Source of the DNA: Macrostomum hystrix
Lineage: Eukaryota; Animalia; Platyhelminthes
Length of the DNA: 64,000 nt
Reading direction: 5' to 3'
NCBI GenBank assembly: GCA_950097015.1
Contig: CATNEN010000001.1
Location: 24,056,001-24,120,000 of the forward strand
Made by a program: the position numbers and the translations under genes. The notes under the pieces are model-generated. The model did not search any database, was not told where the DNA came from, and was given only the letters and a program-made list of their open reading frames with translations. Position 1 is the stretch's first letter. Every line of letters begins with the position of its first letter. Shown one piece after another: positions 1,350 through 47,484 of the stretch.

Positions 1350-1516
1350 TCAAGAGAATTCCAAGAATATATGAATGCAGTCATGGATCTAAGAGAGAAT
1401 TCCAAGAATATATGAATGCAGTCATGGATCTAAGAGAGAATTCCAAGAATATATGAATGCAGTCATGGATCTAAGAGAGAATTCCAAGAATATATGAATG
1501 CAGTCATGGATCTAAG
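1350..1516. repeat. 41-bp tandem repeat, ~4 copies
   Basis: CTAAGAGAGAATTCCAAGAATATATGAATGCAGTCATGGAT recurs at 41-bp spacing (1389, 1430, 1471). Confidence 0.92.
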
Positions 1517-22227: not shown

Positions 22228-23676
<1,449 letters not shown>

Positions 23677-26517: not shown

Positions 26518-26899
26518 AGGAGGAAGAAGAAGATAGGAAGAAAGCATTGGGGTGGGGTGGGTGTGGCGTCCAATCCGATACTGGAGGGTGGGGAGGCATG
26601 GGGTGGGTGGGTGCCTGTGTCACAGTACAGGGATGAACTGATGGGATGCCGGCCTATCTGCTATAGAAGAACCCTGACGACACTGCGGAGATAGGAGGCT
26701 AGCCCGGCAGTGTATTTTGGAGTTTGGAGGGGCGCCGACAAACTCAGAACAGAGGAGGAATGAGATAGGAGGAAAGCATTGGGGTGAGTGTGGGGTGTGG
26801 CGTCCAATCCTACTTACCTACATATCTAGTCTGAGCTCCATCACAGGACAAACACCCACCCCAACTCTAGCCAATCAGAATCGAGCACACATTTTGGAT

Positions 26900-26910
26900 G
26901 GTATATAAGC
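26900..26910 (+). promoter_or_regulatory. TATA box upstream of the first Polinton ORF (CCAAT ~30 bp upstream)
   Basis: GGTATATAAGC ~85 bp before ATG 26989; GCCAATCAG at ~26870. Confidence 0.5.
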
Positions 26911-26988
26911 CCTCAAAAATCGTTAGGAAAGGAGCAAGTTTTCTCAGCTCGCAATTTACCTGATCTTAGCTTTTGACATTAGCTAGCG

Positions 26989-27726
26989 ATGGACATCTGC
27001 GACGGTTATAAGATTCAGGTTCAAGAGTACGAAGGCTTGAAGTACATAGCGATAAGAAAGTTCTACCGCCACGGCAGCACTGCAAGTCTGAAACCTGGCG
27101 TCCCTGGCTTCAACCTGAATGTTTGCCAATGGGAAAAGCTGAAGCAACTGAAGCGGTCGCTCGTAGTGTCTGCTCTCAAAAGCGAGTGCAAGGTGGTGAA
27201 ACTAGGTTTTGATAAGTTTATCGAAGTCAGGGACGGCATCATCTGGCTCAAGCGGCTGCCTGAGGACTGCTGCGAGGAATTCATGAAGCGTAACGCCGTA
27301 CCGCTGACCCCACCGCTGTGGAAGAAGCTGTGGCACAACGCATCATGGATAGACGGCCAGCTGTCGGCTCCCTTCAAGGACATGCGGACGAAGTACGAGC
27401 TGGAGTCAGATGAGGAAGAGCAGGACACGAAGCCCGTCCTGGAGGCCGAGAGATCTGAAGGCAATGGTGGAGACGGAGACGAGATCGGCTCGCCTAGAAT
27501 GCTGCAGATCGACACCGAGGCTGCCACATCCACGCCGCTTCCCCTGGCTAGCGCTGGGGATGGACGGATCCCGTCTCGGGACTCGGACTTGCGGGAGGAC
27601 CCGGTGTGGTACCAGTTCCGGGCGGCTGCGGCTGCGGCGGCCAGCGGTAGCAGGAAGCGCAAACAGCCGTTTCCACTTCGTCGGCAGGAGGCAATGAAGC
27701 TTACCAGGCTGCACTTCGATGAGTGA
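26989..27726 (+). CDS. PC4/Sub1-like (p15) ssDNA-binding / coactivator domain protein with acidic, NLS-bearing tail
   Basis: IQVQEYEGLKYIAIRKFY...LKPGVPGFNLNVCQWEKLK matches the PC4 pattern V..F.G...I.IR..Y...KPG.KGISL...QW..L; a weaker second repeat (VPLTPPLWKKL...IDGQL); SRKRKQP NLS-like. Confidence 0.72.
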   Translation: MDICDGYKIQVQEYEGLKYIAIRKFYRHGSTASLKPGVPGFNLNVCQWEKLKQLKRSLVVSALKSECKVVKLGFDKFIEVRDGIIWLKRLPEDCCEEFMKRNAVPLTPPLWKKLWHNASWIDGQLSAPFKDMRTKYELESDEEEQDTKPVLEAERSEGNGGDGDEIGSPRMLQIDTEAATSTPLPLASAGDGRIPSRDSDLREDPVWYQFRAAAAAAASGSRKRKQPFPLRRQEAMKLTRLHFDE

Positions 27727-27986
27727 CTGAACAGTGTGCTCTAATGCATCTGACTGCTTTTGTGCTCAAATCAGCTGCTCAATTTGTAATTTTGACAGTG
27801 TTAAAAGCCAGCTACTTAATGTTTTTTCCCATTTATTCAGTGTTCACAATTGCTTCTGCATTTTTATGGTGCTGGTTGTTTTTCGACGCCGGTCGATTTT
27901 CTGTTACAGTGAATAACAAAAAAAACCTAAGAAAATGAATTGGTCATGCTAGAGAAAGCAAGCCTTGCTTCGTTCTAAAACTGCTC

Positions 27987-29054
27987 ATGGAGAAAATTTA
28001 CTTTAACCCTGCTCAACCAGCCAGCTTTTCCAGTGCCTCAAAATTGCAGCATGAAATGAGAGAAAGAGGTGGTCGTGAGACCACTAAGAGCATAGAGCAG
28101 TGGCTGTGTGAGCAGCCAGTGCACACATTACACAAGCCAGCTAGAAGGCGATACCCAAGAGCACCAATCATAGTGCGATCCATTGACGATCAATGGGAGC
28201 TTGACTTGGTTGAGATGATTCCATTCGCAAAGTACAATAATGGCTACAAGTACATTCTCACATGCATTGATGTGCTGTCCAAATGTGCATGGGCCAGGCC
28301 ATTGAAAAATAAATCAGCTGCAGAAGTGAAGTCCGCATTCGAGAGCATTCTGAAATACTCAAAACGCCAGCCTCGCACAGTCCGCACAGATCAGGGGAAA
28401 GAGTTTCTCAACACTACTTTTCGCCAATTCTGCATAGAGCGGGGGATTCTGGCTTTCCCAACCAATAGTGAGCAGAAAGCAGCCATCATTGAGCGATGGA
28501 ACAGAACTCTGAAGAGCAAAATGTGGCGGTATTTCACGTACAAAAGCACCCTGCACTGGGTTGACGTGCTGTCCAAGCTAGTGAAGTCCTACAACAGCAC
28601 TTACCATAGAAGTATAAAAATGGCGCCAACAAGCGTCTGCAAAGATAATGAATCTGAGGTCTGGATGAACCTGTACGATGGGAAAGCAATTGAGACAATA
28701 GAGAAGCTGAAGAAGCCGAAATTCTGCGACAATCAGTTAGTGAGGATTTCCAATGCACCCAGGGTGTTCCGAAAGGGCTACAAGGCCAACTGGAGCGAGG
28801 AAGTGTACACTGTGGTGGCCAGGGCCCCGAAGCACTACCCGTACATGTACAAGATTAGAGACATGAAGGGGGAAGAGATTCGAGGCCTCTTCCATGAGCA
28901 TGAGCTGCAGGCTGTTCCGGACTCACAGCGGTTGTATGTGATTGAAAAGATTTTGAAGACTGAGAAACGTCATGGAAAAATCCGATATCTTGTGAAGTGG
29001 GCCGGCTACAACTCCACCGGGTGGGTGGATGAAAAGGACTTAAGAAAAGTCTAG
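27987..29054 (+). CDS. Polinton retroviral-like (rve) integrase with C-terminal chromodomain
   Basis: DDE: WELDLVEM / VRTDQGKEF / AIIERWNRTLK; YNSTYHRSIKMAP; KGYKANWSEEVY; chromodomain YVIEKILK...YLVKWAGY...WV. Confidence 0.96.
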   Translation: MEKIYFNPAQPASFSSASKLQHEMRERGGRETTKSIEQWLCEQPVHTLHKPARRRYPRAPIIVRSIDDQWELDLVEMIPFAKYNNGYKYILTCIDVLSKCAWARPLKNKSAAEVKSAFESILKYSKRQPRTVRTDQGKEFLNTTFRQFCIERGILAFPTNSEQKAAIIERWNRTLKSKMWRYFTYKSTLHWVDVLSKLVKSYNSTYHRSIKMAPTSVCKDNESEVWMNLYDGKAIETIEKLKKPKFCDNQLVRISNAPRVFRKGYKANWSEEVYTVVARAPKHYPYMYKIRDMKGEEIRGLFHEHELQAVPDSQRLYVIEKILKTEKRHGKIRYLVKWAGYNSTGWVDEKDLRKV

Positions 29055-29091
29055 TAGTAAACCTATTTCTGTGATAAAGGTATTTTCTATT

Positions 29092-29907
29092 ATGAGAAAC
29101 ATTGTTATCAACAGTGAACATGCTGAAGGTACTTCTAGTGACTTTCATTTTCACCTGCCTTCACCTATTTACTTGGATCGAAATGTGGACTATGAGGCAG
29201 GTCTGGTTGAAATCCATCTGCCTGCTTCATGGTACAATCTTGACGAACCTTACTGCGTCACTATCTCAGTTGGAAGAGAGCACGAGGCCCTGGTTCTTCA
29301 ACCTGGACGCTTTGCTAGAGTGGAGGAGCTGGTGGAGTGCCTGAATGAGCTGTTGGCCAACTCTGAGTCTCTGTTCTTTGATGCGAGGAGCGACAGAGAT
29401 GCTGAAATGGAGGCTGATGAATCAGGTCTGCTGGGACGTCGCGGTGATGCTAGGGACTTTGGAATAAAAATTGACATTCAAAACTCGAGAACAGTAGTGC
29501 AGAACAACACAGTGCAGGCAGAGCTGCATCTTCCGCCTAGCAAGATTCTGCAATGGCTTGGATTCAGCAACCAGGGATCAGTGAAAGTTCGACCTGGGCG
29601 GCTTGTCTCAGAGCGCTGCATCGGCTGCCCGCGCACCAATCTGATTAATGTGCACTGCAGCATCGTTGAGTCGAGCAATTGCAACGGCAACTCACTGCTG
29701 AGAACAGTTCGAATGAAACCTGATGCAGAATGGGGAAACTATCTGAGCCAAGTGTTTAAGAAAACCATCTTCTTTCCAATTCCGAGGATCAATTTTTTAC
29801 ACAGCCTTCGAGTTCAACTGCGAGATATTTTTGGTAGCCTTCTGGCCGCTCAGTCCTGCAGTCCCGTTCTGCTGACAGTTCAGATTCGGGAGAAAAGAAT
29901 TCAATGA
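29092..29907 (+). CDS. Minor capsid protein (penton, single jelly-roll)
   Basis: SDFHFHLPSPIYL...YEAGLVEIHLPASWYNL N-terminus and LINVHCSIVE...LLRTV...LRVQLRDIFG C-terminus typical of Maverick mCP; position next to MCP; first ATG at 29092. Confidence 0.8.
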   Translation: MRNIVINSEHAEGTSSDFHFHLPSPIYLDRNVDYEAGLVEIHLPASWYNLDEPYCVTISVGREHEALVLQPGRFARVEELVECLNELLANSESLFFDARSDRDAEMEADESGLLGRRGDARDFGIKIDIQNSRTVVQNNTVQAELHLPPSKILQWLGFSNQGSVKVRPGRLVSERCIGCPRTNLINVHCSIVESSNCNGNSLLRTVRMKPDAEWGNYLSQVFKKTIFFPIPRINFLHSLRVQLRDIFGSLLAAQSCSPVLLTVQIREKRIQ

Positions 29908-30284
29908 ATTACCAGCAGCTTATTCGGCAGTATTCGGGTGCGCGAACTGGCAAGCAGCCTGCACTGTACGGCTGCGGGAGCTCACCGGGACTCATGACGT
30001 TCCAGCCCCCATCGACTGCTCCATCAACGCTAGCTGCTGCTGGTCTCCCCAATGCTAAAAACTCTTCTATGCAATCAAAACGAAGGAAAAGAAAGTTGAA
30101 AAAAAGTAATAGTAATCATTGCAAAGACAACAAGATAAAGAAGAGCAGATCAAGAAGGAAGCAGAAAAGTTCAAGCAGGAAAAAGCTTAAGAAGAAGAGA
30201 ACTGGGAAGAGCAAGAAAGCAACAAGAAGGAAGCGAAAAGTCAGCAGCAAAACTGTGAAGCGCGTACTGGACTCTCTGTCATAG
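29904..30284 (+). CDS. Small Lys/Arg-rich protein, putative virion core/DNA-condensing protein
   Basis: C-terminal half dominated by K/R; LYGCG fits the adenain (M/I/L)xGx-G site; sits between mCP and MCP with ATGA overlap. Confidence 0.65.
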   Translation: MNYQQLIRQYSGARTGKQPALYGCGSSPGLMTFQPPSTAPSTLAAAGLPNAKNSSMQSKRRKRKLKKSNSNHCKDNKIKKSRSRRKQKSSSRKKLKKKRTGKSKKATRRKRKVSSKTVKRVLDSLS

Positions 30285-30287
30285 ACA

Positions 30288-31571
30288 ATGGCTTACGGAT
30301 TCAACCCCAGGCTCGACCTGTTCAAGACACCTGTGCTGCAGACTTGCATTGAGAAATCTGCCTATGTTGACATTCATCCTGTGAATTCCATTGTCGCAAA
30401 CTCACCCATTGAATTTGACTGCCACCAATCAGCTGATGAGTACACCGATTTAGTTAACTCATTTCTCTACATTCGGTGCCGCATTGTGAGACTGAATGGA
30501 GCATTGATGAGGGAGGATGAGCTGGGTGAGGATGGAGTTGTTGCAGACCGCAGAGACAGCAATGTGCATCCGGAAAATTTTGTTCTATCCACAGCCTTCT
30601 CAGATGTAATTGTTAGCATTAACCAGCGAATCGTCTCTGGGGGTGACCAGCTGTACCCGTACCATGCCTACTTCAAAGCACTGATGAGCTCATCCGATGC
30701 ACAGCAACTCAAATTTCACTCTGCCGGTTTCTTGGAACCCGACTCAGCTGATGAGGACCACACTGAGAACCACAGGACCTCCCAATGGAGGGAATATGCG
30801 GGACCACTCCTTAGCGACATTTTCCAGTGCCCTGTGTTTCTGCTGAACAATTTGCACCTGCACATCAAACTGGTGCCCAGTGATGGAGCATTTGGAATCA
30901 GAGCTCCAGCCGCCAACAACACCGCCTACAGGATGGAAATATCGCACTGCATCCTCTATCTTCGCCGAGTCAAAGTTCTGCCCCACATCAGCTTGGCTCA
31001 CGAGCAGGGACTGACTAATCAGAATGCGCTCTACCCAATTGAGCGAACTGAAATGCAAAACTTCATCCTGCCCCAGGGAATTCAGTCAAAAAATATTGAA
31101 GGATTCACGCACGGAAAGCTCCCGAAATTCATCATGCTGGCCTTCGTCAACCACCGAGCCTTCAATGGGCACCATCATTCCAGCCCGTTCCAGTTCCAAA
31201 ACTTCAACCTGAGTCAGCTTGCTCTCAAGAAAGGGGGTGAATCCATGTGCCACGGGGCATTTACACCTGAGAACAATTCGTTTGTGAGAGAGTATTTGCA
31301 CTACCTGAAAAGCTGTCAATCTGCGAGCCACACCAACTCGGTTCCATCGATTCCCTACCAGCTCTTCTCAAACGAGAACACAGTGTTCGCATTCGATCTG
31401 ACACCCGAGGGAGCGGCTCTGTGGTACGGGCAGAAGGAGGGAAACCTGCGGCTGGAGATTCGGTTCCGACAGGCCTTGGATGAAGCCGTGTCCCTGATTG
31501 TCATGTGTGTGTATGACTCACTGATTGAGGTCACCAAGCACAGGGAGCTATTGCTGGACTATTCATCTTAA
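30288..31571 (+). CDS. Major capsid protein (double jelly-roll, Maverick PY/hexon-like)
   Basis: LDLFKTP..QTCIE...PIEF...YTDL.NSFLY...YPYHAY...P.FLLN...YPIER...LPKFIMLAFV...AFNG...PFQF...FAFDLTP...GNLRLEIRF motifs; 427 aa. Confidence 0.9.
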   Translation: MAYGFNPRLDLFKTPVLQTCIEKSAYVDIHPVNSIVANSPIEFDCHQSADEYTDLVNSFLYIRCRIVRLNGALMREDELGEDGVVADRRDSNVHPENFVLSTAFSDVIVSINQRIVSGGDQLYPYHAYFKALMSSSDAQQLKFHSAGFLEPDSADEDHTENHRTSQWREYAGPLLSDIFQCPVFLLNNLHLHIKLVPSDGAFGIRAPAANNTAYRMEISHCILYLRRVKVLPHISLAHEQGLTNQNALYPIERTEMQNFILPQGIQSKNIEGFTHGKLPKFIMLAFVNHRAFNGHHHSSPFQFQNFNLSQLALKKGGESMCHGAFTPENNSFVREYLHYLKSCQSASHTNSVPSIPYQLFSNENTVFAFDLTPEGAALWYGQKEGNLRLEIRFRQALDEAVSLIVMCVYDSLIEVTKHRELLLDYSS

Positions 31572-32116
31572 TGAAAGTTGATATGGATGCCCTTCAGCTG
31601 CGTTCTCTTGCTAGATCCTTCCTGCTCAACAATCGAATCTTGATAGTCACCCTTTGCTTAAAGCAAAAGACCTGGATAATAAACTGGGATGAAGGAAGAA
31701 TGCGTGAGAAAATTCCCAATCACAACAGAATCATCAGCTTCTTCTTGATAAAACACAGCGTCTCGTTTGGACACTGGGTTGCATGTTTTGTTGACAATGG
31801 AAATGTAGTTGAATTATTTGATTCTCTCGGTTGGAATGCACAGACTCTGAATGCCATCCACCAATTTTTTGCTAATAAATTCAAGTTTCCTTTCCGCATG
31901 CTTTGCAATGTTAACCGAATCCAATGCAGTCAGTCGGACAAGTGCGGACTTTTCTGTCTCTATTTTGCATATCAAAGAATTGTTTTGAAGCGATCATTCG
32001 AATGGATTCTGCGAAATCTACACGTGAAAGAAAACTGCCCGTTGAATGACAGAATGCTTTGTCAGTTTGAAGCCAGCTTAAGAAAAAGAGGTTCATGGCG
32101 AAAAAGAAATACTTGA
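31571..32116 (+). CDS. Adenain/Ulp1-like cysteine maturation protease
   Basis: His-Asp-Gln-Cys set: GHWVA, FDSLG, IQCSQSDKCGLFCLYF. Confidence 0.9.
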   Translation: MKVDMDALQLRSLARSFLLNNRILIVTLCLKQKTWIINWDEGRMREKIPNHNRIISFFLIKHSVSFGHWVACFVDNGNVVELFDSLGWNAQTLNAIHQFFANKFKFPFRMLCNVNRIQCSQSDKCGLFCLYFAYQRIVLKRSFEWILRNLHVKENCPLNDRMLCQFEASLRKRGSWRKRNT

Positions 32117-32133
32117 AATAAAGCCCAACAGAG

Positions 32134-32781
32134 ATGGAGTCAGAAAGAGTGTACTATGATGTCCGCCTGCGACAGGGCAGCTGCATGATGGTCTGCGGAC
32201 CCACCAATGCTGGAAAGACAACCTTCGTGAAGCATCTAATACAGTACAGGGATGTATTATTCGACATCCAGCCTGGGAGAGTGCTCTGGTACTATGGGAT
32301 CGCACAGCCAGCGCATGCAGAGCTGAGCAGTCTTGGTGTGCAACTGCATCAGGGATTACCCACTAACTTTGAGAGCTCATTGATGAGCAATGATCTGGTC
32401 ATTTTTGATGACATGATTGATGAAACTTCTAACTCTGCTTCAATGCGAAATATTTTCACTGGACTCGCCCATCACCTGCCATGCTTTCTTGTAATGCTCA
32501 CTCAGAATATGTTTTTCAAGGGCAAGGAGTTGCGCACCATGAGCTTGAACACGATGTACTATGTGATCCTTAAAAACCCCAGAGACCAGCTGCAGATCGC
32601 TGCATTGGGCAGGCAGTGCTTTCCAGAGAAGCCTGGCTTCCTGCTTGAGGTGTTCAAGCATGTCACAGCGCAGGGCAGGGGGAGCTACCTGTTTCTGGAC
32701 TTTCACCCTTGCACTCCCGATGAGCTGCGAGTACGAGCCAGAATTCTGCCCAATCAGAGGCCACATCTGGTTTATGCTTAA
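32134..32781 (+). CDS. A32/FtsK-like DNA packaging ATPase
   Basis: Walker A GPTNAGKT, Walker B LVIFDDM, HH..LTQN.F...RTMSLN..Y...KNPRD, YLFLDFHP. Confidence 0.93.
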   Translation: MESERVYYDVRLRQGSCMMVCGPTNAGKTTFVKHLIQYRDVLFDIQPGRVLWYYGIAQPAHAELSSLGVQLHQGLPTNFESSLMSNDLVIFDDMIDETSNSASMRNIFTGLAHHLPCFLVMLTQNMFFKGKELRTMSLNTMYYVILKNPRDQLQIAALGRQCFPEKPGFLLEVFKHVTAQGRGSYLFLDFHPCTPDELRVRARILPNQRPHLVYA

Positions 32782-32824
32782 GAATATAGGTTGAGAAATG
32801 CTATTAGCCTGAATTATTGCAACT

Positions 32825-33148
32825 ATGGAAGTGTTCGAAGCTCATCAAAGTTTATTTGAAGTCCTTGCCTCTCCCAAATATACAATTAGCCTCAAGCGCG
32901 CAATAATAAAGCTGAGTCCGAAAGAAGCTTGCACTTTTCTTGTCGAGGCCTGTTACAACCTATTGAAAGAGAATTTGCCATTTTCTCTTGTTGAAAAGAC
33001 AGCGCTATTGAAATCTAAAAATATAATCCGCAGGATTCCCCGGCAAAGAAAACAGAGTGACTTACTCAAAGCTTCTTTTATCAGAATCCTCCCCATTCTG
33101 CTGAAACTTGTGAAAAAGAAGAGGAAAAGAGATGCACAAATTCAATGA
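32825..33148 (+). CDS. Small conserved-type Polinton protein of unknown function
   Basis: 107-aa ORF in the gene train; E.CYNLL...LP...K..L...K.IIR pattern resembles small Maverick ORFs that follow the ATPase. Confidence 0.6.
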   Translation: MEVFEAHQSLFEVLASPKYTISLKRAIIKLSPKEACTFLVEACYNLLKENLPFSLVEKTALLKSKNIIRRIPRQRKQSDLLKASFIRILPILLKLVKKKRKRDAQIQ

Positions 33149-33791
33149 GATGGTTCTGATCTCAAGGTCCGAGTATGAAATGCTGAGGAGGAGTGCCAAG
33201 ACCATTGAGTCTGTGAGTGACACGGCCATAAAGCAGGCACAGATGAAATGTGATGATATCCTGTTGGCCCAAGACTGCCCAGATGATATGAAGACAGCCC
33301 TGTACCAGAGTGCCATGAAGAGCTTGCTGTCAAAGCGAAAGCAGGCAGGGAAGGAAACTGCATCTGAAGACAAGAAAGCGAAGATGGTGAAAGCTGAGAC
33401 GCCACTAAGGAGCTGGGAAGAAAAGATCTGCCAGTCAGTGCCACAGAAGTTCAAACCCAGGGCTCGCAGTCTATGGGCCATCCTATCTGGCACCGAGTCT
33501 GCCATCCGTGTGTCCGATAATGGGGAGGTGAATATTTCTGGGAACTTGATCCCTGCCTCAAACATAGTGGATTTAATTCTGCACACAGTGAAGGACTCAA
33601 AAAGTTCCAGTGAGCCTGTGGGATGGGCTGCTTTCAGTGACTTGCTTCGTCAAAAGAATCTCAATGTGCCAATGTCAGCCGTAGGAAAATCTGTACAAAA
33701 AGAAATTCTGGAGTCAATTGAGAGCAAAGACGCACAGCCTTCAACCAAAGGACTGGGCAGCAAGTCTGCGTGGCTGAGGTTGAATAGGTGA
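33132..33791 (+). CDS. Conserved-type Polinton protein of unknown function
   Basis: P..FKPRARSL...GEVNISGNLIPASNIVDLI...P.GW..F..LL...NVP...VG...W pattern as recalled for a widespread Maverick ORF. Confidence 0.68.
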   Translation: MHKFNEMVLISRSEYEMLRRSAKTIESVSDTAIKQAQMKCDDILLAQDCPDDMKTALYQSAMKSLLSKRKQAGKETASEDKKAKMVKAETPLRSWEEKICQSVPQKFKPRARSLWAILSGTESAIRVSDNGEVNISGNLIPASNIVDLILHTVKDSKSSSEPVGWAAFSDLLRQKNLNVPMSAVGKSVQKEILESIESKDAQPSTKGLGSKSAWLRLNR

Positions 33792-33855
33792 AGAAAAAGT
33801 ATTTAAGAAAGGCAGCACAGTCGAATTCTGCTGGTTTTAAGGCACCCGCTTGAGC

Positions 33856-34692
33856 ATGAACTACATAGACATTCAAGGCTTCCCGTGTGATGGAGAGAAT
33901 GATAACTTCATCGTGAAGGAGCTGGCAGTCCTCGAAGTAAAAAAGGGAAGCTACCACATTTCCCACCATGTGTACGCCCCACCGCATCCGTGGGAGAGAG
34001 TGTCACCCGACATGCGAATGTACTACAGTCAGCTCACGAAACATCAGCATAAATTCAAGTGGAGCGATGGAAGCCGGCCGTATTTTCAATTGGCCGATGA
34101 CATTGTGAGCATTGGAGGCGGAGTCACTTGGACAAGCGGAGAGGAAAAATCTATTTTTCTGACTGAGCTGCTAGGCAGACAGGTATTCAACCTAGACGAT
34201 CTGAGCTCACCTTCCACCAAGGAGTCAGCTAGCGGCTGTGCTGTGAGAAATGCATTGCTGTACTACAGTTGGCTAAGGCCAAAGTTCTGCATCAGCTTAA
34301 GAAGCGAGCAGTGTCCATGGCACAAGAGTTTCAGCGACATCAGCAGTCAAAGTATTCAAAATGAGTGCAGGAACCACAACACTGAGTGTCACCAACCTGG
34401 TTGGCGGAGTGGATCTGAAACTGGTTGGAGGCAGGGGCGCCCAGCTGCCTCTAAGAGAACTGGCTCTCAGCATGGCGCATGTGATCTACCGACCCGTTTG
34501 GCCCCGGGTGCTCATCAAGCAGATGCGAAATCCCAGGGTAACTCTGCTGCTCTACCCCACTGGGCAACTGAGCATCTGTGGCGCCAAGAGCTACGCAGAC
34601 GCGGCCAGGGCTGCCCGTCGCTTCGTGGCTATGCTGCATCGCAGAGTGCCGGTTCAACTGCTGCCTCCTCAATCCATTTGTGTTCGAATTAA
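33856..34692 (+). CDS. DEDD/DnaQ-like (RNase H fold) nuclease-like protein; 3' part overlaps the TBP-like ORF in another frame
   Basis: N-terminal YIDIQGF...FIVKELAVL...PP.PW...H.FKW.DG..PY...GEEK..FL...NL...CAVRNA...W pattern; sequence after ~34290 looks like off-frame read-through. Confidence 0.6.
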   Translation: MNYIDIQGFPCDGENDNFIVKELAVLEVKKGSYHISHHVYAPPHPWERVSPDMRMYYSQLTKHQHKFKWSDGSRPYFQLADDIVSIGGGVTWTSGEEKSIFLTELLGRQVFNLDDLSSPSTKESASGCAVRNALLYYSWLRPKFCISLRSEQCPWHKSFSDISSQSIQNECRNHNTECHQPGWRSGSETGWRQGRPAASKRTGSQHGACDLPTRLAPGAHQADAKSQGNSAALPHWATEHLWRQELRRRGQGCPSLRGYAASQSAGSTAASSIHLCSN

Positions 34693-34924
34693 AACTATTA
34701 CTGCAAAGGGCAACCTGGACTTATGCGGTGCTTTATCGCTGTCTGATTTGCGCAACATTCTACCCAGCGCAACTTATGAACCTGAATCGTTTTCTGCTTT
34801 AATCTGTAAACTTCCCTTTTGCAAATGTTTGCTTTTCCATAACGGCTCATTTGTTCTCAGTGGAGCTCGCTCTCTGCGACAATTGCATTCTGATGTTGAG
34901 CATCTAGCAGCTCTCATCAAGTGA
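34361..34924 (+). CDS. Divergent TATA-binding protein (TBP)-like protein encoded by the Polinton
   Basis: Two TBP repeats: VTNLVGGVDL...LRELA...YRP...MRNPRVTLLLYPTGQLSICGAKSYADAARAARRF and ITAKGNL...LSDL...ATYEPESFSALICKL...LLFHNGSFVLSGARS; AATAAA follows at ~34936. Confidence 0.88.
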   Translation: MSAGTTTLSVTNLVGGVDLKLVGGRGAQLPLRELALSMAHVIYRPVWPRVLIKQMRNPRVTLLLYPTGQLSICGAKSYADAARAARRFVAMLHRRVPVQLLPPQSICVRIKTITAKGNLDLCGALSLSDLRNILPSATYEPESFSALICKLPFCKCLLFHNGSFVLSGARSLRQLHSDVEHLAALIK

Positions 34925-35393
34925 CTTGAATTATAAATAAATAAATGTCTGTGAAAGCCTGAGCAGTGGATCCGCTTTGAATTCAATGTAATATTTGGAA
35001 GAATAGAAGCCAAATTAAAATTTCGCAGACTTCTTTTTTTAATGCAAGCAAAGAGTACGGTAAGTTCATGCATACATTCCACTAACACACAGAAAATACG
35101 AGCTTACTCCATCCATCGCTCGTCGCATAAAAGACAACAAAAATAGAAAAATATGAAAAATAGAAAAATCAATTCCCACCACCTCATCAATTGACTTTGA
35201 AAAATTTTAATTGCAGCGGAATTCTTTCATAAATATAAAAATACAAAATACAAGAAGACCAAATACAAGACGACAACTCACACAATGTCTTCAGATAGCA
35301 TAATAAGCACAAATACAAAGGATGATTTCATTTAAAAGCACTCAAACTGAATCCTGTCCAACTAGCACGCAGAATATTCACTGGTGAATTGCT

Positions 35394-38300
35394 TTACGCC
35401 TTCGGCTGCTTTGCATCTCGTCCCGACAAGCTAGGTGGTAGCAGGACTCGCTTCCTGGTCGTAGTAGCATTTAGATGATTCCAGAGGTTGACATGGCCGA
35501 ACGGAAGGCTGACATTCGACGAAGTCCACGCTCTCTTGTCCTCCCACATTGTCAACGCCTTCTTCACCTGCTCGATCGTGTACACTTCATGCCTGACGCT
35601 GCTGATTCGTCGGACAGTCACATTGAGCTGAGTGAGGCAGTGATAGGCAGCAGCAAAGTCTTCATGCGTGATGGCACGCTTCACGACGGCCTTCTGTACG
35701 CCCTTGGCCGTCTTCTTGTCTGGTAAAGTCGACTCCTGCGCACTCTTGAACGAGTACAGTTTAGGCTTCAGAAGAATCCACTCTTTGTAGATGGAACCAG
35801 CAGATTCATCTTTGATGCAGCCCAGTCGAGCCTTCAAGCCGTCAGATCGAAGCGGATGCTGAATCGGGTAGTTAGACGTGTCCAACAGACCTCTGTCAAT
35901 CATAGTGGGCAGCATGTGCTTCTGGACATCGATGTTTTTCACGCACAGAAATAGAGAATCTGTGTCACCACCGCAAAGTTGAATCTTGGCAGCACTGGAA
36001 GTCAACTCAAACCACGGCTTCAGTTTTTCGTAGAAGAGAGCGTACATGATGAGCTTTGACAAATCGAGTACGCATTGTCCGATGTACACAGGCCGATCGA
36101 GGCGCACAGAAGTCTTGTTAAGTTGGAAGACGGACAGATTCTCCTTGATGATGCTGAACTCTTTCAGATTCGGCTTTGAGGCGAGCACTTGGGCCTGATG
36201 GTCACCGTTGCAAATTCTGACATCCCTTCGCTTCCGAACATTCTCCATTGTCTTTCCGAATAGGCTGTTGTTTTTGCTCTTGTAGTAGTTCTTTTCAAAC
36301 TCAGTGCTTGCCCTTGAGCGCTTCTCGCTATTGCTGTCTATGTAGCTCTTGAAAACCTGCTCCTGTCGAAAGCTAATTGCCTTTCGAAATGCAAGGACTC
36401 GCATCCCTTGCTGTAGGTAGAACTTGAGCACTCTACTGTGCACAACATAAGCTTCTTTGTCTAGACATGTGAGCAGCAGCTTTTGTGCACCATTATACTT
36501 CTTGTTCGGATTCAGCTGGAGCCAGAGTTGCTGCATGTAAGCAGGGAAATCCTCGAAAGCAACGGTTCCCTTCTCAGGTGCTAGCGGCAGCTCTTCAGTC
36601 CGCTGGTGAATAGAGTCCGGATAGTGCAAGTCTACTTCGATCAGATAAGCATGAGAAGCGTCATCTTGTAGGTTGAGGATGGTGCTCTCGTTCCACTGTT
36701 GTAGCTCATCGGACTCAATCCACTTGAAATCACTCACTGGCAGCGGCATGGACAGTGCTTGACCATAGAGATTATTGACATCCAAAGGCAGCAGATACCT
36801 CGTCTCTTCATCATCAGCACTGCTGCTTGAGCACACCTGATGCACGTTCGTAAAGGTCATTCCTCCGCGGATTCCAGCTTCAAACATCCGGTACATGTCT
36901 CCATCAACAAGAAGCTCCAAGCGGCGCCTTGCGCACTTCAGCGCTGATTCAAACGACAGTCCTGGAGCAGTGATGAAGTGAACGGGATCCAGGCCATCGT
37001 CAGCAAGGCTCAGTCTCCTGAATGACTCAAAGGCGTCGGCCAATTGACGAATGTCCAGTTCGAGGTAGGACATCATGTACTCGCCAAGGTCTTTGACCTG
37101 TAGCTCGCGCCACGCTTGTTTTGCGTGCTCATAATCTGCGTCTGAGCAGAACGATTGTGTGAGCACATTGAAGAAGCTCTCTTGTGATGGTAGCTCCGTC
37201 ACATGCAAATCCGAGGGCCGCTTGACAAAGTCATAGGGAAAAACCCCTTTACTGAGAAGAATGTTGTTAGATAGCAACGGCCGATGCAGCTTCATCTCGA
37301 GTGTAAGCGGACAGCTGTCAGCATTCAAAGTGCACATCACAGTCTCCAGACTGCAGCCTAGAAAGTTTAGAGAATCCAGAAACTGAATGGTGAAATTCAC
37401 GGGTCGCTTTTTACCAGATGGTAGTGTGAATTCGCCCACTTGAAACTCAACTTTCAGGCACATGTAGCGCTCGCTCGTCTGTGGAATCACGCTCATCTTC
37501 CAGTGCTCCATCTTGCACAGTGCCGTTGAAAAAATCAAGTGTAGATCATAGCAGCTGAGATTGTGGAAGTACACAGGCAAAAAGCGTCGATTCAGCTGAG
37601 CCTTCATATTGCATTCCGCGCAAGCAGCACCTCGGAAAAGCCCAGTGAGATGATCGTGATCCCAATGCTTATCAGGCCCACTTTTGAAGAGATGAGAGCA
37701 GTAGCAGCAAACCTGTGCGCCTTCAAACTTTCTTGTTGCTTCATCATTCACAATCTTCTTCTGATAGCTGTGCTCCCGGTTCCAAAAGTAGACTTCCCGT
37801 GCGAGCACCTCAAGCGAACGCAGAAATCGCTCAACGCATAAATCCGGATCGTCTTCTCGGAAAAGTTGCAGACTCTGGCTTCCTTGCTTGAGTCTTGGAC
37901 CCACACTGTCTCCCTTTTGAACTAGGAGGTAGCCAATTGCGGCCGGAACGTGCTGTGACAGCTTTCGAAGACGACCAGCTTCTTCAGGTTCGTCATTGAC
38001 ACTGGAATTGAAAGACTCAATGTCTGCATAGACTACAAATGGTGGTGAAATTGTCTTCTGCCAGCTACCAAAAGCAAGGATGTTGTTTGTCTCTGTCGGC
38101 AAAATCTCCTTGACAACGCAATCATCTGACTGATAGCAGCCCCTGCGATGTTCTTGCAGTCTCTCCTCTGACCTGAAGGCGGACAAGCAGCGCTCGCACC
38201 ATTTGCGCTGATGAAGGCCGTCTTTGCTGTTGAGTAGGCGATTCAGACTCACAACAGCGCACCAGTGAGCACTGCCTGACTTCTCATCAACAAGGTACAG

Positions 38301-39056
38301 CAGAGGCAGCAAGCGCCTTCCGGCTGCGGTTATCGCCTTAGGCTGACGCAGAACCTCCACCTTACCAGCACGCCAAGTTAGTACTGCGAAGCAGATGCCT
38401 GGATTCAGCATCTCCAACTTGTCCAGTGCATTTAGGCTCACGGGAAATGCTACGCCTTCTACGTTGAGCTCATGCAGCCACGGCCGGTATGTTGCAAGCG
38501 CCTGCGGAGATTTGCGCAAGGTCTCCTCACCGTGGTGCAGCAGCGCTAGGCAGGCATACAGGAAGCAGTTGTTGCCATCACTCGGCGGGTTAATTACAGC
38601 GTGCTTTTGCTTCAGTCCGCTTGGGAGCACAAAGTTGCTGCTTCTACCGATATAATAGCGCACACGATCTCCACGAGAGATGCAAATGTCAAAATAATTA
38701 ATCCTGTCTATTATCCAACCACTACCATTGGTGTTCATGAATTCACAGGTTCTTTCACATGCAGCCAGCTGAGCATTCCACCATTCTTCGAAACTCCATA
38801 TCTCCTCCAGGCAACTGCTGATCCACTTGTCTTCTTCAGCCACAAATTCGCAAGCCTGCCTTCTCTTCATATGGATGTTCAGACGCAGCTGCGCGCGCAA
38901 GATGACATTGGCCTGCAGCCGCTTGGTGATCGCGTCTTCTATCACGCTCCTGCACTGCCGCACCATGTCGAAGATATTCAGCTGCTGCTCCATGCGACTC
39001 GCGCTGACCCGGTGAACCTCTAGAACACCTTCATGAGCAGTGGCGTGTAGACTCAT
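35394..39056 (-). CDS. Protein-primed family B DNA polymerase (1220 aa, probably N-terminally extended by splicing) with vOTU-like, C2H2-like and EndoVII/HNH-like modules
   Basis: ExoI VVYADIES, ExoII FHNLSCYDLH, ExoIII YLELDI, PolA LDVNNLYG, PolB KSKNNSLFGK, PolC GDTDS, LKPKLY, KGV; OTU-like SDGNNCF...AHWC; CERC..F..E.L..H..C; CCYC...DHDHLTGLFRGAACAECN. Confidence 0.97.
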   Translation of the reverse strand: MSLHATAHEGVLEVHRVSASRMEQQLNIFDMVRQCRSVIEDAITKRLQANVILRAQLRLNIHMKRRQACEFVAEEDKWISSCLEEIWSFEEWWNAQLAACERTCEFMNTNGSGWIIDRINYFDICISRGDRVRYYIGRSSNFVLPSGLKQKHAVINPPSDGNNCFLYACLALLHHGEETLRKSPQALATYRPWLHELNVEGVAFPVSLNALDKLEMLNPGICFAVLTWRAGKVEVLRQPKAITAAGRRLLPLLYLVDEKSGSAHWCAVVSLNRLLNSKDGLHQRKWCERCLSAFRSEERLQEHRRGCYQSDDCVVKEILPTETNNILAFGSWQKTISPPFVVYADIESFNSSVNDEPEEAGRLRKLSQHVPAAIGYLLVQKGDSVGPRLKQGSQSLQLFREDDPDLCVERFLRSLEVLAREVYFWNREHSYQKKIVNDEATRKFEGAQVCCYCSHLFKSGPDKHWDHDHLTGLFRGAACAECNMKAQLNRRFLPVYFHNLSCYDLHLIFSTALCKMEHWKMSVIPQTSERYMCLKVEFQVGEFTLPSGKKRPVNFTIQFLDSLNFLGCSLETVMCTLNADSCPLTLEMKLHRPLLSNNILLSKGVFPYDFVKRPSDLHVTELPSQESFFNVLTQSFCSDADYEHAKQAWRELQVKDLGEYMMSYLELDIRQLADAFESFRRLSLADDGLDPVHFITAPGLSFESALKCARRRLELLVDGDMYRMFEAGIRGGMTFTNVHQVCSSSSADDEETRYLLPLDVNNLYGQALSMPLPVSDFKWIESDELQQWNESTILNLQDDASHAYLIEVDLHYPDSIHQRTEELPLAPEKGTVAFEDFPAYMQQLWLQLNPNKKYNGAQKLLLTCLDKEAYVVHSRVLKFYLQQGMRVLAFRKAISFRQEQVFKSYIDSNSEKRSRASTEFEKNYYKSKNNSLFGKTMENVRKRRDVRICNGDHQAQVLASKPNLKEFSIIKENLSVFQLNKTSVRLDRPVYIGQCVLDLSKLIMYALFYEKLKPWFELTSSAAKIQLCGGDTDSLFLCVKNIDVQKHMLPTMIDRGLLDTSNYPIQHPLRSDGLKARLGCIKDESAGSIYKEWILLKPKLYSFKSAQESTLPDKKTAKGVQKAVVKRAITHEDFAAAYHCLTQLNVTVRRISSVRHEVYTIEQVKKALTMWEDKRAWTSSNVSLPFGHVNLWNHLNATTTRKRVLLPPSLSGRDAKQPKA

Positions 39057-39581
39057 GAGCTCACCTGAGGGGAAAAATGGATGTTTAGTATCTAAAAATT
39101 AAATATCTAAATCAAAGCACACTGCATGCCAGGGCTACTCCAATAAGGCAGTAATAAATATTTGTGCATTCCTAAATGATGCACTCAAATTAGTATTTAA
39201 AATTAAATGGCATCACATCTGCATATTCGCATGAATGACAAGCAGCTATAATAATCATGCTCAATTTCTAAAAACATCATTGAAAACTGTTTTAATTAAT
39301 TGATCGATTAATTGATTGATTGGTTGATTTATTGGTTGATTTAATGATAGATGATTGATAAATTGATTGATGATTGATTGACTGATAAATTTATAAATTG
39401 ATAAATTGATAAATTGATAAATTGATAAATTGACTGATTGATTGATGATGGATTAGTTGATCGATCGATTGTTTGACTGATTGACTGATTGATTGGTTGA
39501 TTGGTTGGTTGATTGATTGATTGAGTGATTAATTGATTGAGAACTTCTGAAAGAATATCTGAAATCGCTTCGTTAACTCAC

Positions 39582-39987
39582 CTGCAAGTTGTGCATCACC
39601 GCCACTATGATTGTTGTCGCTGTTCACAGAACGCCCATTATTGCTCGATTGTATAGCACCTTCTTGCCAGGAGCTGTCGACTTCCTGCCAGGAGTGCTCT
39701 TCTTGCAGCCAGGAGTGCTCTTCTTGCAGCCAGGAGTGCTCTTCTTGCAGCCAGGAGTGCTCTTCTTGCAGCCAGGAGTGCTCTTCTTGCAGCCAGGAGT
39801 GCTCTTCTTGCAGCCAGGAGTGCTCTTCTTGCAGCCAGGAGTGCTCTTCTTGCAGCCAGGAGTGCTCTTCTTGCAGCCAGGAGTGCTCTTCTTGCAGCCA
39901 GGAGTGCTCATCATCATCATCACCAGATGAGTGCTCTGTCTCGAGGTGAGAGCTATGATTATTTCTAGACTGGAAAAATAGCAGCAT
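39582..39987 (-). CDS. Putative upstream exon of pPolB containing ~10 LQEEHSW heptad repeats (21-bp VNTR ~39685-39907)
   Basis: ATG at 39987; donor CAG/GTGAGT at 39582/39581 (phase 1) matches acceptor TTTTTCCCCTCAG/GT at 39065/39064 (phase 1), in frame with the pPolB Met. Confidence 0.55.
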
Positions 39988-40768
39988 AAACTGAGACGTA
40001 AGAATTCAAATGTGCGTAGCATGAGATATCGTGGTGATAATGAAAGGCACTCCAAAATATATCTCAAGTGATGAGTTCGAGCTCTATTTAAGAGTTTGAG
40101 TACAGCATCAGTTTCTCATAAGAAATCTATATCTGTCTAAATGTTTGCCGATTTTTTCGAGCCCAGGAAGTTTGAGGCAAAGTTTGAGTCCACCAGATTT
40201 ACCTGCCTGCTAAGTAGTAATTTTCTGTTTAAAGACTTAGAACGAACTTAAATAAACGCCCAAATCCAGACATCAGATCCATCTATACAATTTCCAATGG
40301 ACTGCTTAGAGTTTTGCACATGAAAGGAAAAATAATAATCATTCCATCTTATATTCTGACACTGAACCATCACCGCTTCGTAAATATATTTATTTCAGTA
40401 GTATAGCAAATTAGCTAAGTAAAAAATAAGAAACAACCTCGGAAAAACTTTAACAATCGCGCAAATTATCGAGTACGGAATAAAAATACACAACACGCTT
40501 GATTAAGGTTGAAGAAATTGCATAAATGAGAATAGAAAATCAACATTGGCAGGCATGGGTAAATTGCTAATGTTCTGTCCTTAAAGGCTTCCAAACGACT
40601 GATACTAGAGTAGGAAAAATGGAAGCTACTATTTCCATTGAATATTCTGTTGTGCTGATAAAAGATTGCTAGGATTAAGCAAAAAATAAAGACCAAAAAG
40701 AAAGCCTTAAATTCCAGCAAGCATAGGCCCGAAGTTCAAATGAAGCATGCTCTCAGCATCCGAATACA

Positions 40769-41833
40769 TCATAGTGGAATAATTATGATGCGATTGCCCT
40801 CCAAAGTAACTGTGTATCCGTTGCCACTAGCGCTTGGCAGTTGAAAAACAACTCCAGTGGTAGGGAGCGTCAGAAGTGCGGCCTGCTCTGCATCATTTGC
40901 ACCTTGAATAGCCGTTGCAGGCTCACCTGAATAAGCACAAACAGCAGCGTCAGCAGATGTAGCTCCTGCAGAAGCAGCTCCAGCAGAGGCAGCGCCAGCA
41001 GAGGCAGCTTCAGAAGAACCGGCGGCACCAGAAGCAGCTCTAGCAGAGGCAGCGCCACCAGAGGCAGCGCCACCAGAAGCAGCCAAAGTGGCTTCCCCAG
41101 GCTCCATCTCATCGCCGCCTTCCTCCAGCATCTCCTCGCTGTCCTCTTCCACAATCGCCTGCCACAGATGTAGCTGCTTACAGGCAATCTCCTTGCTGGC
41201 TTCCCGGGGCTGGGCCTGTTGATCTGGCTCCATTATCCCAGCTTCTGCGAGAACACGCTCGAGAACTCCAAAGCTGACATCCAGACATGGATTATCTACA
41301 CAGGGTTCCACTGAAGCAGCCGAGATGCATGCTGGAGCAACCGAGCTCGAGGTGCTGATGGCAGTTGCAGTTGCCACCTCCAATGGTGAAGAAAAGGCAG
41401 CTGCTGCAGCTGCTGGAGGCTCGCTGTCCGCCCTCCTCCTCTCAAGTGTGCAGTCAATAACTTGGCTGAGGTGTGCCGAGAGGAGACTACTCGACTTCGG
41501 CTGCTGCTGCTTCTGTTGCTGACTTTTCTTCTTCACCTCAAGCTGCTCTCTTTGCAACTGCCTTTTAGCAGCCCGAATAATCCTCCACCTGTTGGCCTCC
41601 TGCTTCTTTTTATCGGAGCTCACGATGGTGTGGCCGCGGTGGTAGCTTGGAACTCTGCCGCTTGCAATTCTCTCCACGTTGCTGCACTCGTCGCATGCTA
41701 GCCAGCAGGAAACGCGGCACAGAGGATTCTCATGGTGTCGAGGTGGAATGCCTCCGAGCTGGCAGACTTCGCAAGTCAAACAAATTTCAAAAAGCTCATT
41801 GTCGCAGCTTGAAAATATCTTTTTTGTTGTCAT
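40769..41833 (-). CDS. Polinton accessory protein: N-terminal Cys/His-rich zinc-binding region with LxCxE (LACDE), basic helix, acidic and Ala-rich tail
   Basis: 354-aa ATG ORF next to the right TIR; CLTCEVC...HH...C...CWLACDEC...H; no recognisable family. Confidence 0.7.
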   Translation of the reverse strand: MTTKKIFSSCDNELFEICLTCEVCQLGGIPPRHHENPLCRVSCWLACDECSNVERIASGRVPSYHRGHTIVSSDKKKQEANRWRIIRAAKRQLQREQLEVKKKSQQQKQQQPKSSSLLSAHLSQVIDCTLERRRADSEPPAAAAAAFSSPLEVATATAISTSSSVAPACISAASVEPCVDNPCLDVSFGVLERVLAEAGIMEPDQQAQPREASKEIACKQLHLWQAIVEEDSEEMLEEGGDEMEPGEATLAASGGAASGGAASARAASGAAGSSEAASAGAASAGAASAGATSADAAVCAYSGEPATAIQGANDAEQAALLTLPTTGVVFQLPSASGNGYTVTLEGNRIIIIPL

Positions 41834-42814
41834 GATAGCGAGTTAAAATGAAAATGCGGAACTATTCTTAGTTGTCTTAAGCAAGAAACGGATTGTGCGG
41901 ATAGAATGTATGCAAAAATTTTTACTTCGCCTCCTTAATATACTCGTTTTAAACTCCCCGCGGCCGCCATTTATGGCTACTTATATGAATTTTTGTTGTG
42001 CAGCATACCTATTACGAGCCAACTTAACAACAACAACAGTGCCTGTGCACCAGTGCGCCAGCACAGCTATCAACCCCACAACAATCCAGAGCCCTACTCG
42101 ATCTCGAACCCCAAATTATCAGACTGGCCTCAATAAAGCGATTGGGAGGGTCACCTTCCAATTAACCAGGGCAGGCGGACCAATTGCAAACAGGTAAACA
42201 GGTAGGCACTAGGGAGGCCTACCTGTGATGGAGCTTAGACTAGATCTGTAGGTAAGTAGGATTGGACACCAAACCCCACGATATAATAATGTCTTGCATC
42301 AAATTTTTGAGACACGATTGCTCAGATTATACGTAAGGTGACCATGTGAGCACGAAAGTCGAACAATCACTGACCTCAATTATCCGTCCCGAATATACCC
42401 ACATTTTCAGTGGTTGTAATATAATATATCATTTACTACCATATTTTGTTTTCTCCATCCCTCAACACCATAATAGAAAAAAATATATCGTGCCGATGGT
42501 AGTAAACAAGTAAACCTAGCACCCAACTGGCCCGTTAGTTTCCAAAACAAGCCATAGATCAAAGCTTATCCGCCGCTCCAGCATAAGCATAAAGTTACTT
42601 GAGCTGTGTTTATAAACAACTTTTATCATTACACTTTAATGCGCTTATTTTAATTTTTTGTACAATATTTTAGTTGCTATCTACAGATTTTATTAGCTAT
42701 CTTGTTTTTATAGATAACGTCCTTTTCAGTAGCTGTGCGGCGAACTCGACGCGGAGTGGGGTGCTCTCAAGTGGACAAAGAGATTGGCCAGCCTCTCCAC
42801 CAATCTCTGCTGTG

Positions 42815-45970: not shown

Positions 45971-47484
<1,514 letters not shown>

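Follow-up and report, generated by a model that had tools for sequence, protein, structure and literature searches.

A Polinton of Macrostomum hystrix encodes a divergent TATA-binding protein and carries a positioned candidate promoter box

How Polintons time the expression of their capsid genes, and whether these elements are still virus-like, are questions on which a self-encoded TATA-binding protein (TBP) would bear. Such a gene lies in a 64,000-nucleotide stretch of the flatworm Macrostomum hystrix (assembly GCA_950097015.1, contig CATNEN010000001.1, positions 24,056,001 to 24,120,000 of the forward strand), here called the window, inside a complete Polinton/Maverick element. The protein has a changed DNA face, and an 8-bp box, YTTAAGAA, stands before its gene and before most of the central genes of the element. 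The reading favoured here, at a probability of roughly 0.6 and argued from sequence, is that the protein would act as a viral late-promoter TBP, reading YTTAAGAA and working with host TFIIB and RNA polymerase II (Pol II).

A TBP-fold protein in a complete Polinton

The open reading frame (ORF) at 34361–34924 on the plus strand is unbroken over 187 amino acids (aa), is followed after its stop codon by AATAAA at 34936 and 34940, and is the final plus-strand ORF before the convergent gene for protein-primed DNA polymerase B (pPolB). The Pfam TBP family matched two stretches covering both halves of the product (E 2.2e-23, 82.3 bits against a cutoff of 22.9), and the TBP core begins at about residue 7, so that there is no N-terminal extension. 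The TBP fold is settled because this hidden Markov model match alone suffices. A PDB sequence search with the protein returned 35 matches, all containing TBP, and an AlphaFold2 model built from a 118-row alignment gave a mean pLDDT of 95.9. Compared with solved TBPs the model reached TM scores of 0.83–0.86 among the top five at 23–27% identity, the alignment being rich in cellular TBPs, so that the model leans their way. Structure comparison gave a Z score of 20.4 and a root mean square deviation (rmsd) of 1.7–1.9 Å over 171–174 residues, with the next unrelated row at Z 8.6; the viral TBPs in BFVD were poorer structural matches. The ORF is confirmed as a real two-repeat TBP-fold protein in a complete Polinton.

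The surrounding element has the features of its class: terminal inverted repeats (TIRs) with AGT-repeat ends, a 6-bp target-site duplication (TSD), pPolB, an rve integrase, a packaging ATPase and a protease. The last two have weak Pfam matches in the window, and their homologues in a distant metagenomic locus (L002) exceed the Pfam cutoffs. For the double and single jelly-roll capsids there are candidate ORFs of fitting size and place, with no Pfam match. No RNA polymerase gene was found among the element's ORFs in a Pfam scan of the window ORFs. The closest named homologues are those of Macrostomum lignano, and the size and termini of the element fit vertebrate Mavericks, for which excerpts of PMC8097293 give a range of 12.7–24.6 kb.

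An earlier note on this DNA, made from the letters alone, had described an intact 187-aa ORF inside the TIRs at the end of the plus-strand gene train, with both TBP repeats and no N-terminal extension. The translation, the TIR and ORF maps and the Pfam match bear this out, and the fold check that it proposed, by Pfam and AlphaFold, found the fold present. It overlooked a second ORF (33856–34692) that overlaps the first 110 TBP codons in another frame. This frame stays open across the TBP gene from 34361 to 34692, as about 2% of recodings do, and a gene model from another copy, P0010, has the same overlap for part of that length. The overlapping frame was considered as the driver of the N-terminal changes in TBP and rejected, as three of the four listed variants are silent in the TBP frame and all four change the other frame.

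Ten runs from four studies contain the stretch or part of it, none of them recorded as RNA; this DNA may itself derive from one of the ten. Four were compared with the element and four with host DNA (X1 and X9 with both); X10 yielded short scattered pieces only and was unused. The window also holds a host ribosomal protein S6 gene (rpS6; 48400–49163, minus strand), which is covered to a depth of 1486 in X1, about 1860 in X2 and 386 in X9, with nearly empty flanks. Loose ends at 49134 and 49163 in X1 and X2 match the end of the published M. lignano spliced leader (excerpt of PMC8629364). Given the rpS6 coverage in all three runs and the spliced-leader ends in X1 and X2, these runs behave as RNA. 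In X1, one contig of 12,377 nt (26820–39716) spans the TBP ORF and exactly skips the GT-AG intron of PolB, and X9, which its code and its rpS6 mark as coming from a different organism, holds a diverged copy with a contig over 33858–34671. A sense TBP mRNA is likely. The X1 contig differs from the window at 25 bases (12 silent, seven residue-changing, six intergenic), and its sole difference in TBP is non-synonymous, V60I; the three listed TBP differences in X5 and X9 are silent in the TBP frame and alter the overlapping frame. Since Macrostomum-type flatworms are a laboratory model and the element is found in RNA, the proposals made below are practical to test.

The DNA face of the protein and its relatives

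Residues are numbered as in Arabidopsis TBP, by way of the plant-type TBP P0013, and in this alignment the residues named in the excerpts of PMC13566119 land on the right letters. Two of the four intercalating phenylalanines of canonical TBP are kept, F148 and F165 (F144 and F159 in the window protein), while F57 has become P48, with W47 on R56, and F74 has become Y65. The two-asparagine, hydrophobic Val/Thr/Pro DNA face is likewise broken: N27 is kept (N12), N117 is T112, and V80, T82, V119 and P149 are replaced by S71, C73, T114 and S145. K78Q, Q116K and T173S complete the list of changed positions, and those kept are N27, V29, L72, E144, E146, F148, L163, F165 and V171. The earlier note's statements on the C-terminal phenylalanines, on W/P and Y in the N-terminal repeat and on the second asparagine all hold against P0013; V80S, T82C, V119T, P149S and the acidic stirrup were absent from it.

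The new states are fixed in the family. Y74, S/T80, C82, K116, T117 and S/T119 occur in all ten family rows, and these, together with N27, V29, E144, E146 and F148, are constant in every row that covers them (9–10 of 10). Among 123 other TBP rows, F57 is present in 114 and N117 in 113. By sequence, the acidic C-terminal stirrup for TFIIB is retained as well, with E140 and E142 (window numbering), the putative TFIIB contacts, in 10 of 10 family rows.

A search at E ≤ 1e-5 brought up five relatives, of which four are full length, with 71–77% identity, and an exhaustive search gave five proteins at E ≤ 1e-30 among 1618 at E ≤ 1e-3. More distant members of the family are P0012 (53%) and P0018/P0160 (33%). 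The gene models P0010 and P0011 join TBP to the same neighbouring Polinton ORFs, which indicates the same gene order in other copies. Relatives of the putative capsid protein fall in similar identity bands, at 79–82% and 57% against 71–77% and 53% for TBP, the two sets being unpaired by contig.

A metagenome scan returned nine TBP loci, six of which have a TBP (21–29% identical) beside a Polinton ATPase. L002, L005, L006 and L007 come from one assembly, and L008 and L009 are near-copies counted once. L001 and L003 were set aside as Polinton loci, as they have archaeal-type TBPs and no Polinton genes; L004, at 1.1 kb too short to judge, has a TBP with an in-frame stop and no Polinton gene in view. 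The ATPases of the distant TBP-bearing Polintons are 27–42% identical to that of the window, and four of these Polintons share the same gene block. The order in L002 is PolB, a small ORF, ATPase, ORFs of 120 and 179 aa, TBP, a further ORF, integrase, putative minor capsid, basic ORF, putative major capsid and protease, which repeats the window's block of ATPase, 107-aa ORF, 219-aa ORF and TBP despite identities of 27% for the ATPase and 34% for the integrase. No relative came up among viral contigs, whether the query was the TBP family, the ATPase, the capsid, a mixed Polinton-TBP alignment or another set of short TBPs, and an Atlas search made with the homologue P0002 in place of the window protein returned TBPs in every match and nothing new.

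In a quick tree of 139 rows, from which the near-duplicates P0158–P0160 and P0017 were omitted, a 97% branch split off the window family, which lay outside the canonical eukaryotic group. In a more careful tree of 41 rows, a 99/98 branch separated the family, four locus TBPs and eleven other short TBPs from eukaryotic TBP, archaeal TBP and the TRF2-like row. Branches are long throughout, which allows a single origin of the Polinton TBPs and no more. The family is not sister to the single TRF2-like row, and it keeps F148 where that row has H148, TRF2 also having W at 74; an origin from TRF2, raised by look-alike stretches, was unsupported by the two trees, with their one TRF2-like row and long branches. 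The earlier note had also allowed for a passenger capture, nested within host TBP and present in a single copy. Instead there are several copies, the gene is conserved, and both trees place it outside cellular TBP; by these sequence comparisons it is not a passenger in this Polinton. As distant Polintons have a TBP too, the trait belongs to the lineage and is no oddity of the one element.

Two observations on other TBPs were made in passing. Thirteen short divergent proteins (P0008, P0034, P0046, P0050, P0094, P0102, P0113, P0027, P0031, P0060, P0068, P0097 and P0141) are candidates for further viral TBPs: seven have S/T at both 117 and 119, and the 11 of the 13 that were placed in the 41-row tree all group with the Polinton TBPs. 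In the lineage of L002, the TBP core lacks its own ATG (L002, 3332–4192; L005, 1923–2753; L006, 2249–3091; L007, 2007–2954). In each of the four loci the frame of the core runs open for some 100 codons over the end of the ORF upstream of it, a hint of splicing, a frameshift fusion or a start at a non-AUG codon.

A candidate promoter box and its possible readers

YTTAAGAA occurs seven times in the element, each time on the plus strand, at 48–149 nt (counted from the Y) before seven of the ten central genes. In the 46 kb of the window outside the element, TTAAGAA is found twice on the minus strand and not at all on the plus strand. Because this motif was first picked by eye while the upstream regions were being read, an unbiased 6-mer check was run, in which TAAGAA ranked top with 7 of 10 upstream windows, a score equalled by any 6-mer in 3 of 5000 random sets. 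Most of the sites lie within coding sequence, and for that reason a synonymous recoding test was also run; over 3000 runs, four genes at most had a box, against the seven observed. The signal is one of place and strand, not of number. None of the 25 base differences of the X1 contig falls in a box, a test of low power, and no splice joints or loose ends at the boxes were among those listed in the RNA-derived contigs.

A second box was found in the distant lineage. TTAAGA is not positioned before genes in L002, L005, L006 and L007, and these loci hold YATAGGA 16 times on the plus strand and never on the minus strand, 12 of the 16 at 40–150 nt before an ATG and the others at 7, 165, 177 and 203 nt. 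Against a Markov null, L002 has six copies where 1.1 are expected (0/300) and L005 five where 0.5 are expected (1/300); dinucleotide shuffling gave 3/200. The four loci are 65–78% alike, hence not independent, and were counted as one lineage. In the stretches tested, either lineage holds none of the other's motif. Read in a TATA register, both boxes have Y at position 1, T at 3, A at 4, G at 6 and A at 7.

The TBPs of this second lineage carry F57M, V80S, T82N, N117S, V119S and P149S, plus V29L. By its residues, the DNA face has thus turned polar in both lineages, as in ORF24 of KSHV (Kaposi's sarcoma-associated herpesvirus). Leu29 is present in 4 of 4 second-lineage TBPs, against 2 of 129 others. 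Val29 is described as barring G or C at TATA position 5 (excerpt of PMC13566119, citing Patikoglou 1999 at second hand), and at this position the L002 box has G with Leu29 and the window box has A with Val29. Both lineages have Ser in place of the proline said to favour T at position 1 (excerpt of PMC12529657), and C occupies position 1 in 5 of 7 window sites and 11 of 16 second-lineage sites. TBP being two-fold symmetric, V80 and T82 would belong to the pocket for position 6, and both are changed where the boxes have G. In a third element, L008, where the divergent TBP gene carries R at 80 and M at 82, CTATAAACA occurs twice only, at 563–564 and 1417–1418 (minus strand), 43 nt before the ATPase and 41 nt before a 191-aa ORF. 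Such pairings of box and residue across lineages, all read from sequence, are suggestive.

The favoured interpretation of these data is that the Polinton TBP binds the element's own TATA variant, YTTAAGAA, and recruits host TFIIB and Pol II, so that the capsid, packaging and neighbouring genes would be turned on late in the cycle. The box would then be a core promoter in the TATA register Y-T-T-A-A-G-A-A. The conserved C-terminal repeat (F144, F159, L157 and V165) would kink the 5' half, loss of P149 would admit C at position 1, and the polar V80S, T82C, N117T and V119T would fit the central and 3' half, with its G at position 6. The kept E140/E142 stirrup would dock host TFIIB, a step proposed because the 187-aa protein has no extra domain for Pol II binding. 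The PC4-like gene, with a canonical TATA box in front, would be expressed early, and the box before the TBP gene itself could give positive feedback, primed by weak reading by host TBP or by read-through.

Several points weigh against this interpretation. Canonical TBP is described as needing A/T at positions 2, 4 and 5 and tolerating any base at 6 (excerpt of PMC13566119); YTTAAGAA obeys these rules, so that host TBP could read it unaided. One of the four intercalating phenylalanines is Pro and another Tyr, and herpesvirus ORF24 requires all four. The motif was originally chosen by eye, its whole-window count is unremarkable (9 against 5.7 ± 2.3, with 13 of 100 shuffles reaching 9), its distance to the ATG varies over 48–149 nt, and no box precedes the protease or the 219-aa ORF, each of which overlaps the gene before it at its start. 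The RNA contigs give no strand or level, and read-through from PolB could account for the coverage of the TBP ORF. For the second lineage, the positional test is modest (p 0.012, 0.06, 0.058 and 0.013 at the four loci), and, Leu being bulkier than Val, V29L is no obvious relief of a clash with G. A covariation statistic would need more than three lineages, and the two distant loci L010 and L011 of the ATPase alignment, having neither TBP nor another element gene, are unusable as a TBP-less Polinton control.

The permissiveness of canonical TBP for YTTAAGAA also opens the way to a different account, in which host TBP/TFIID reads the box as a weak TATA box and the viral protein acts as a decoy, taking up TFIIB or the TBP regulators NC2, Mot1 or TAF1 and so tilting host transcription. 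Loss of F57 and the change of F74 to Tyr, alongside an invariant TFIIB stirrup at E140/E142, would suit such a decoy. A pure decoy would, however, have no need of DNA-face states that are fixed across relatives 33–77% identical, and the YATAGGA of the second lineage has G at position 5, which is barred for canonical TBP and calls for another reader or another register. This account is judged unlikely. The earlier note had left non-canonical promoters and a decoy side by side; the first now has a concrete candidate in YTTAAGAA, which favours a promoter reader over a decoy, with the binding itself predicted from sequence.

The loss or change of both phenylalanines of the N-terminal repeat is shared with the TRF2-like row P0016, and the protein may work in the manner of TRF2 (TBPL1), not reading the box directly but reaching the viral promoters through a second factor, viral or of the host, that recognises it. 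Herpesvirus ORF24 depends on partner proteins for stable binding (excerpt of PMC12529657), and ORFs with no assigned role adjoin the TBP gene in conserved order. Such recruitment is nevertheless quite unlikely, given that the family lies apart from the single TRF2-like row in both trees, that F148 and F165 are kept, unlike the H148 of that row, and that the box is TATA-like in length and composition. Finally, a captured host TBP in decay, or a fold reused outside transcription with the box serving RNA processing or translation, would suit the 23–27% identity to solved TBPs, the N-terminal overlap with another open frame and the non-synonymous V60I, but is improbable in view of several intact copies conserved about as well as the putative capsid (unpaired), of TBP in the same block in distant Polintons and outside cellular TBP in both trees, and of boxes free of listed splice joints and loose ends.

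Taken with the second and third lineages, the late-promoter reading extends to the tentative idea, held at slightly less than even odds, of an animal Polinton branch with a long-held virus-specific TBP, whose sub-lineages co-evolved private TATA variants (YTTAAGAA, YATAGGA and CTATAAACA) together with DNA-contact residues. TBP is among the most constrained proteins known, and natural variants that read boxes containing G would reveal ways of rewiring its specificity. Were the late-promoter reading true, the element would hold an independent, minimal version of the herpesvirus late-promoter trick. Co-evolved boxes would further make it the smallest viral late-transcription switch (one 20-kDa protein with host TFIIB and Pol II), offer a natural library of altered-specificity TBPs and be a sign that such 'transposons' run a staged virus programme. 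The pairing of protein and predicted box can be tested with one small protein and an 8-bp oligonucleotide.

The element and its comparison with known systems

Table 1. Features of the Polinton and its candidate promoter boxes, in window coordinates
Feature	Position (strand)	Evidence or remark
Complete Polinton/Maverick, 17,747 bp	25800..43546	AGTAGT...ACTACT termini; TIRs, TSD, core genes
TSD TTGGGC, 6 bp	left 25794..25799 (+), right 43547–43552	identical on both sides
Left TIR	25800..26517 (+)	624 nt at 100% (25800–26423) and a further 96 nt
Right TIR	42815..43546 (-)	624-nt 100% part is 42923–43546
PC4 (p15)-like ORF	26989..27726 (+)	Pfam PC4, E 1.7e-6, 27.8 bits against cutoff 25
Retrovirus-type integrase with chromodomain	27987..29054 (+)	Pfam rve, E 5e-14
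Putative minor capsid protein	29092..29907 (+)	no Pfam match; ORF in same place in L002
Lys/Arg-rich basic ORF, putative core protein	29904..30284 (+)	presumed label
Putative major capsid protein, 427 aa	30288..31571 (+)	no Pfam match; match of L002 counterpart E 4e-31
Adenain-type protease	31571..32116 (+)	Pfam Peptidase_C5, E 3e-4, slightly below cutoff
A32-like packaging ATPase	32134..32781 (+)	weak Pfam Pox_A32, E 0.009; tblastn matches to six Polinton loci
ORFs of 107 and 219 aa	32825..33791 (+)	similar-sized ORFs between ATPase and TBP in distant lineage (synteny only)
278-aa ORF	33856..34692 (+)	its end lies over the N-terminal TBP repeat, in a different frame
TBP-like gene, 187 aa, two TBP repeats	34361..34924 (+)	altered DNA face, acidic TFIIB stirrup retained
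pPolB, 5' exon and 517-nt GT-AG intron (39065–39581)	35394..39987 (-)	Pfam DNA_pol_B_2, E 7e-21
354-aa ORF, Cys-rich N-terminus	40769..41833 (-)	no Pfam match
Canonical-type TATA box TATATAAG	26902..26909 (+)	87 nt before PC4-like gene
One-mismatch variant CCTAAGAA	27926..27933 (+)	61 nt before integrase
Candidate box CTTAAGAA	29039..29046 (+)	53 nt before putative minor capsid gene
Candidate box TTTAAGAA	29755..29762 (+)	149 nt before basic ORF
Candidate box CTTAAGAA	30186..30193 (+)	102 nt before putative major capsid gene
Candidate box CTTAAGAA	32077..32084 (+)	57 nt before packaging ATPase
Candidate box CTTAAGAA	32777..32784 (+)	48 nt before 107-aa ORF; contains ATPase stop codon
Candidate box TTTAAGAA	33802..33809 (+)	54 nt before 33856 ORF; intergenic
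Candidate box CTTAAGAA	34296..34303 (+)	candidate promoter box, 65 nt before TBP ATG
One-mismatch variant CTTAAGAC	41874..41881 (-)	48 nt before 354-aa ORF

The minor and major capsid labels in Table 1 were given from position, size and patterns that we take to be typical, as was the label of the basic core protein, and the N-terminus of the 33856–34692 ORF presumably resembles a DEDD-type exonuclease. The 107- and 219-aa ORFs had no tblastn match in the distant-lineage loci. The PC4/p15-like ORF lies behind the clearest canonical-type TATA box near any gene start; with the TBP-like gene, it gives the element two general-transcription-factor-like genes, and a literature search on Polintons and PC4 returned a single match, an unrelated paper. 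The upstream exon of PolB (39529–39987) contains, in frame, about ten copies of a seven-residue acidic His/Trp repeat with a 21-nt unit. Around the element lies a 23-nt tandem array (24188–25799 and 43548–44516), itself flanked by two inverted actin gene copies (22132–23633 and 46079–47580) that are 99% alike over 1.5 kb. Contigs of run X5 join the left terminus (25798) to different flanking DNA, suggesting that the element is inserted at other sites as well.

Among animal Polintons (adintoviruses, polintoviruses) the window element is at home in its pPolB, integrase, ATPase, protease, putative capsids, AGT-repeat TIRs and 6-bp TSD. In contrast to the window element, the vertebrate core set, as given in excerpts of PMC8097293, has neither a TBP-like nor a PC4-like gene. 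The transcription factor reported for coral polintoviruses is VLTF3 (excerpt of PMC11131425). A TBP label appears in the legend to Fig. 5 of Starrett et al. (2021; PMC8502044), for MELD viruses with an adintovirus-like PolB, and the abbreviation stands in a second figure legend of the preprint (10.1101/697771), as far as the excerpts of both go. A TBP-like gene has thus been labelled in a Polinton-related virus, as a bare legend abbreviation. The passages available from that paper hold no analysis of residues, promoter or function of TBP, and the text of its supplement gave no match to TBP or TATA. These legends were the only mention of TBP in Polinton-type viruses that was found, subscription papers and Repbase entries lying outside the search; TBP and TATA are absent from the main texts of PMC11071308, PMC11131425, PMC8097293, 10.64898/2026.06.19.733378 and 10.64898/2026.10.13.758929. 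The earlier note had thought the gene undescribed. This stands in so far as no paper treating TBP as routine Polinton cargo came to light, and gives way before the Starrett label and the TBPs of distant Polintons. YTTAAGAA as the positioned candidate box of a Polinton TBP is new here.

With cellular TBPs (PF00352: eukaryotic, TRF2/TBPL1 and archaeal) the protein shares the two-repeat saddle, at Z 20 and an rmsd of about 1.8 Å; it differs in its changed DNA face, the missing N-terminal tail and a long branch outside the eukaryotic and archaeal groups. The TBPs of nucleocytoplasmic large DNA viruses (NCLDVs; phycodna-, mimi-, asfar- and marseilleviruses in BFVD) have in common with it a virus-encoded TBP fold, and stand further from it than cellular TBP, at TMq ≤0.75 and 7–20% identity. 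NCLDVs mostly bring their own RNA polymerase, and the window element has none among its ORFs.

The closest parallel in kind is the herpesvirus class ORF24/BcRF1/UL87. KSHV ORF24, of the beta/gammaherpesviruses, is likewise a TBP fold with a polar DNA face from a virus that has no RNA polymerase of its own (excerpt of PMC12529657), and in both systems a short non-canonical TATA-like box stands before structural genes, TATTWAA there and YTTAAGAA here. ORF24, by contrast, is multi-domain, works as part of a complex of six proteins, makes direct contact with Pol II, is without the TFIIB acidic residues and requires all four Phe and the Pro (excerpt of PMC12529657), whereas the window protein consists of the 187-aa core alone, in which the acidic stirrup is kept and the Pro and one Phe are gone. 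In structure it is nearer to cellular TBP (TM 0.84) than to the herpesvirus-labelled rows of BFVD (TMq 0.56 and 0.41; E 1.6e-4 and 9e-4). The Polinton protein is neither a member of the herpesvirus family nor a canonical TBP, and represents the principle of viral TBP mimicry in another form.

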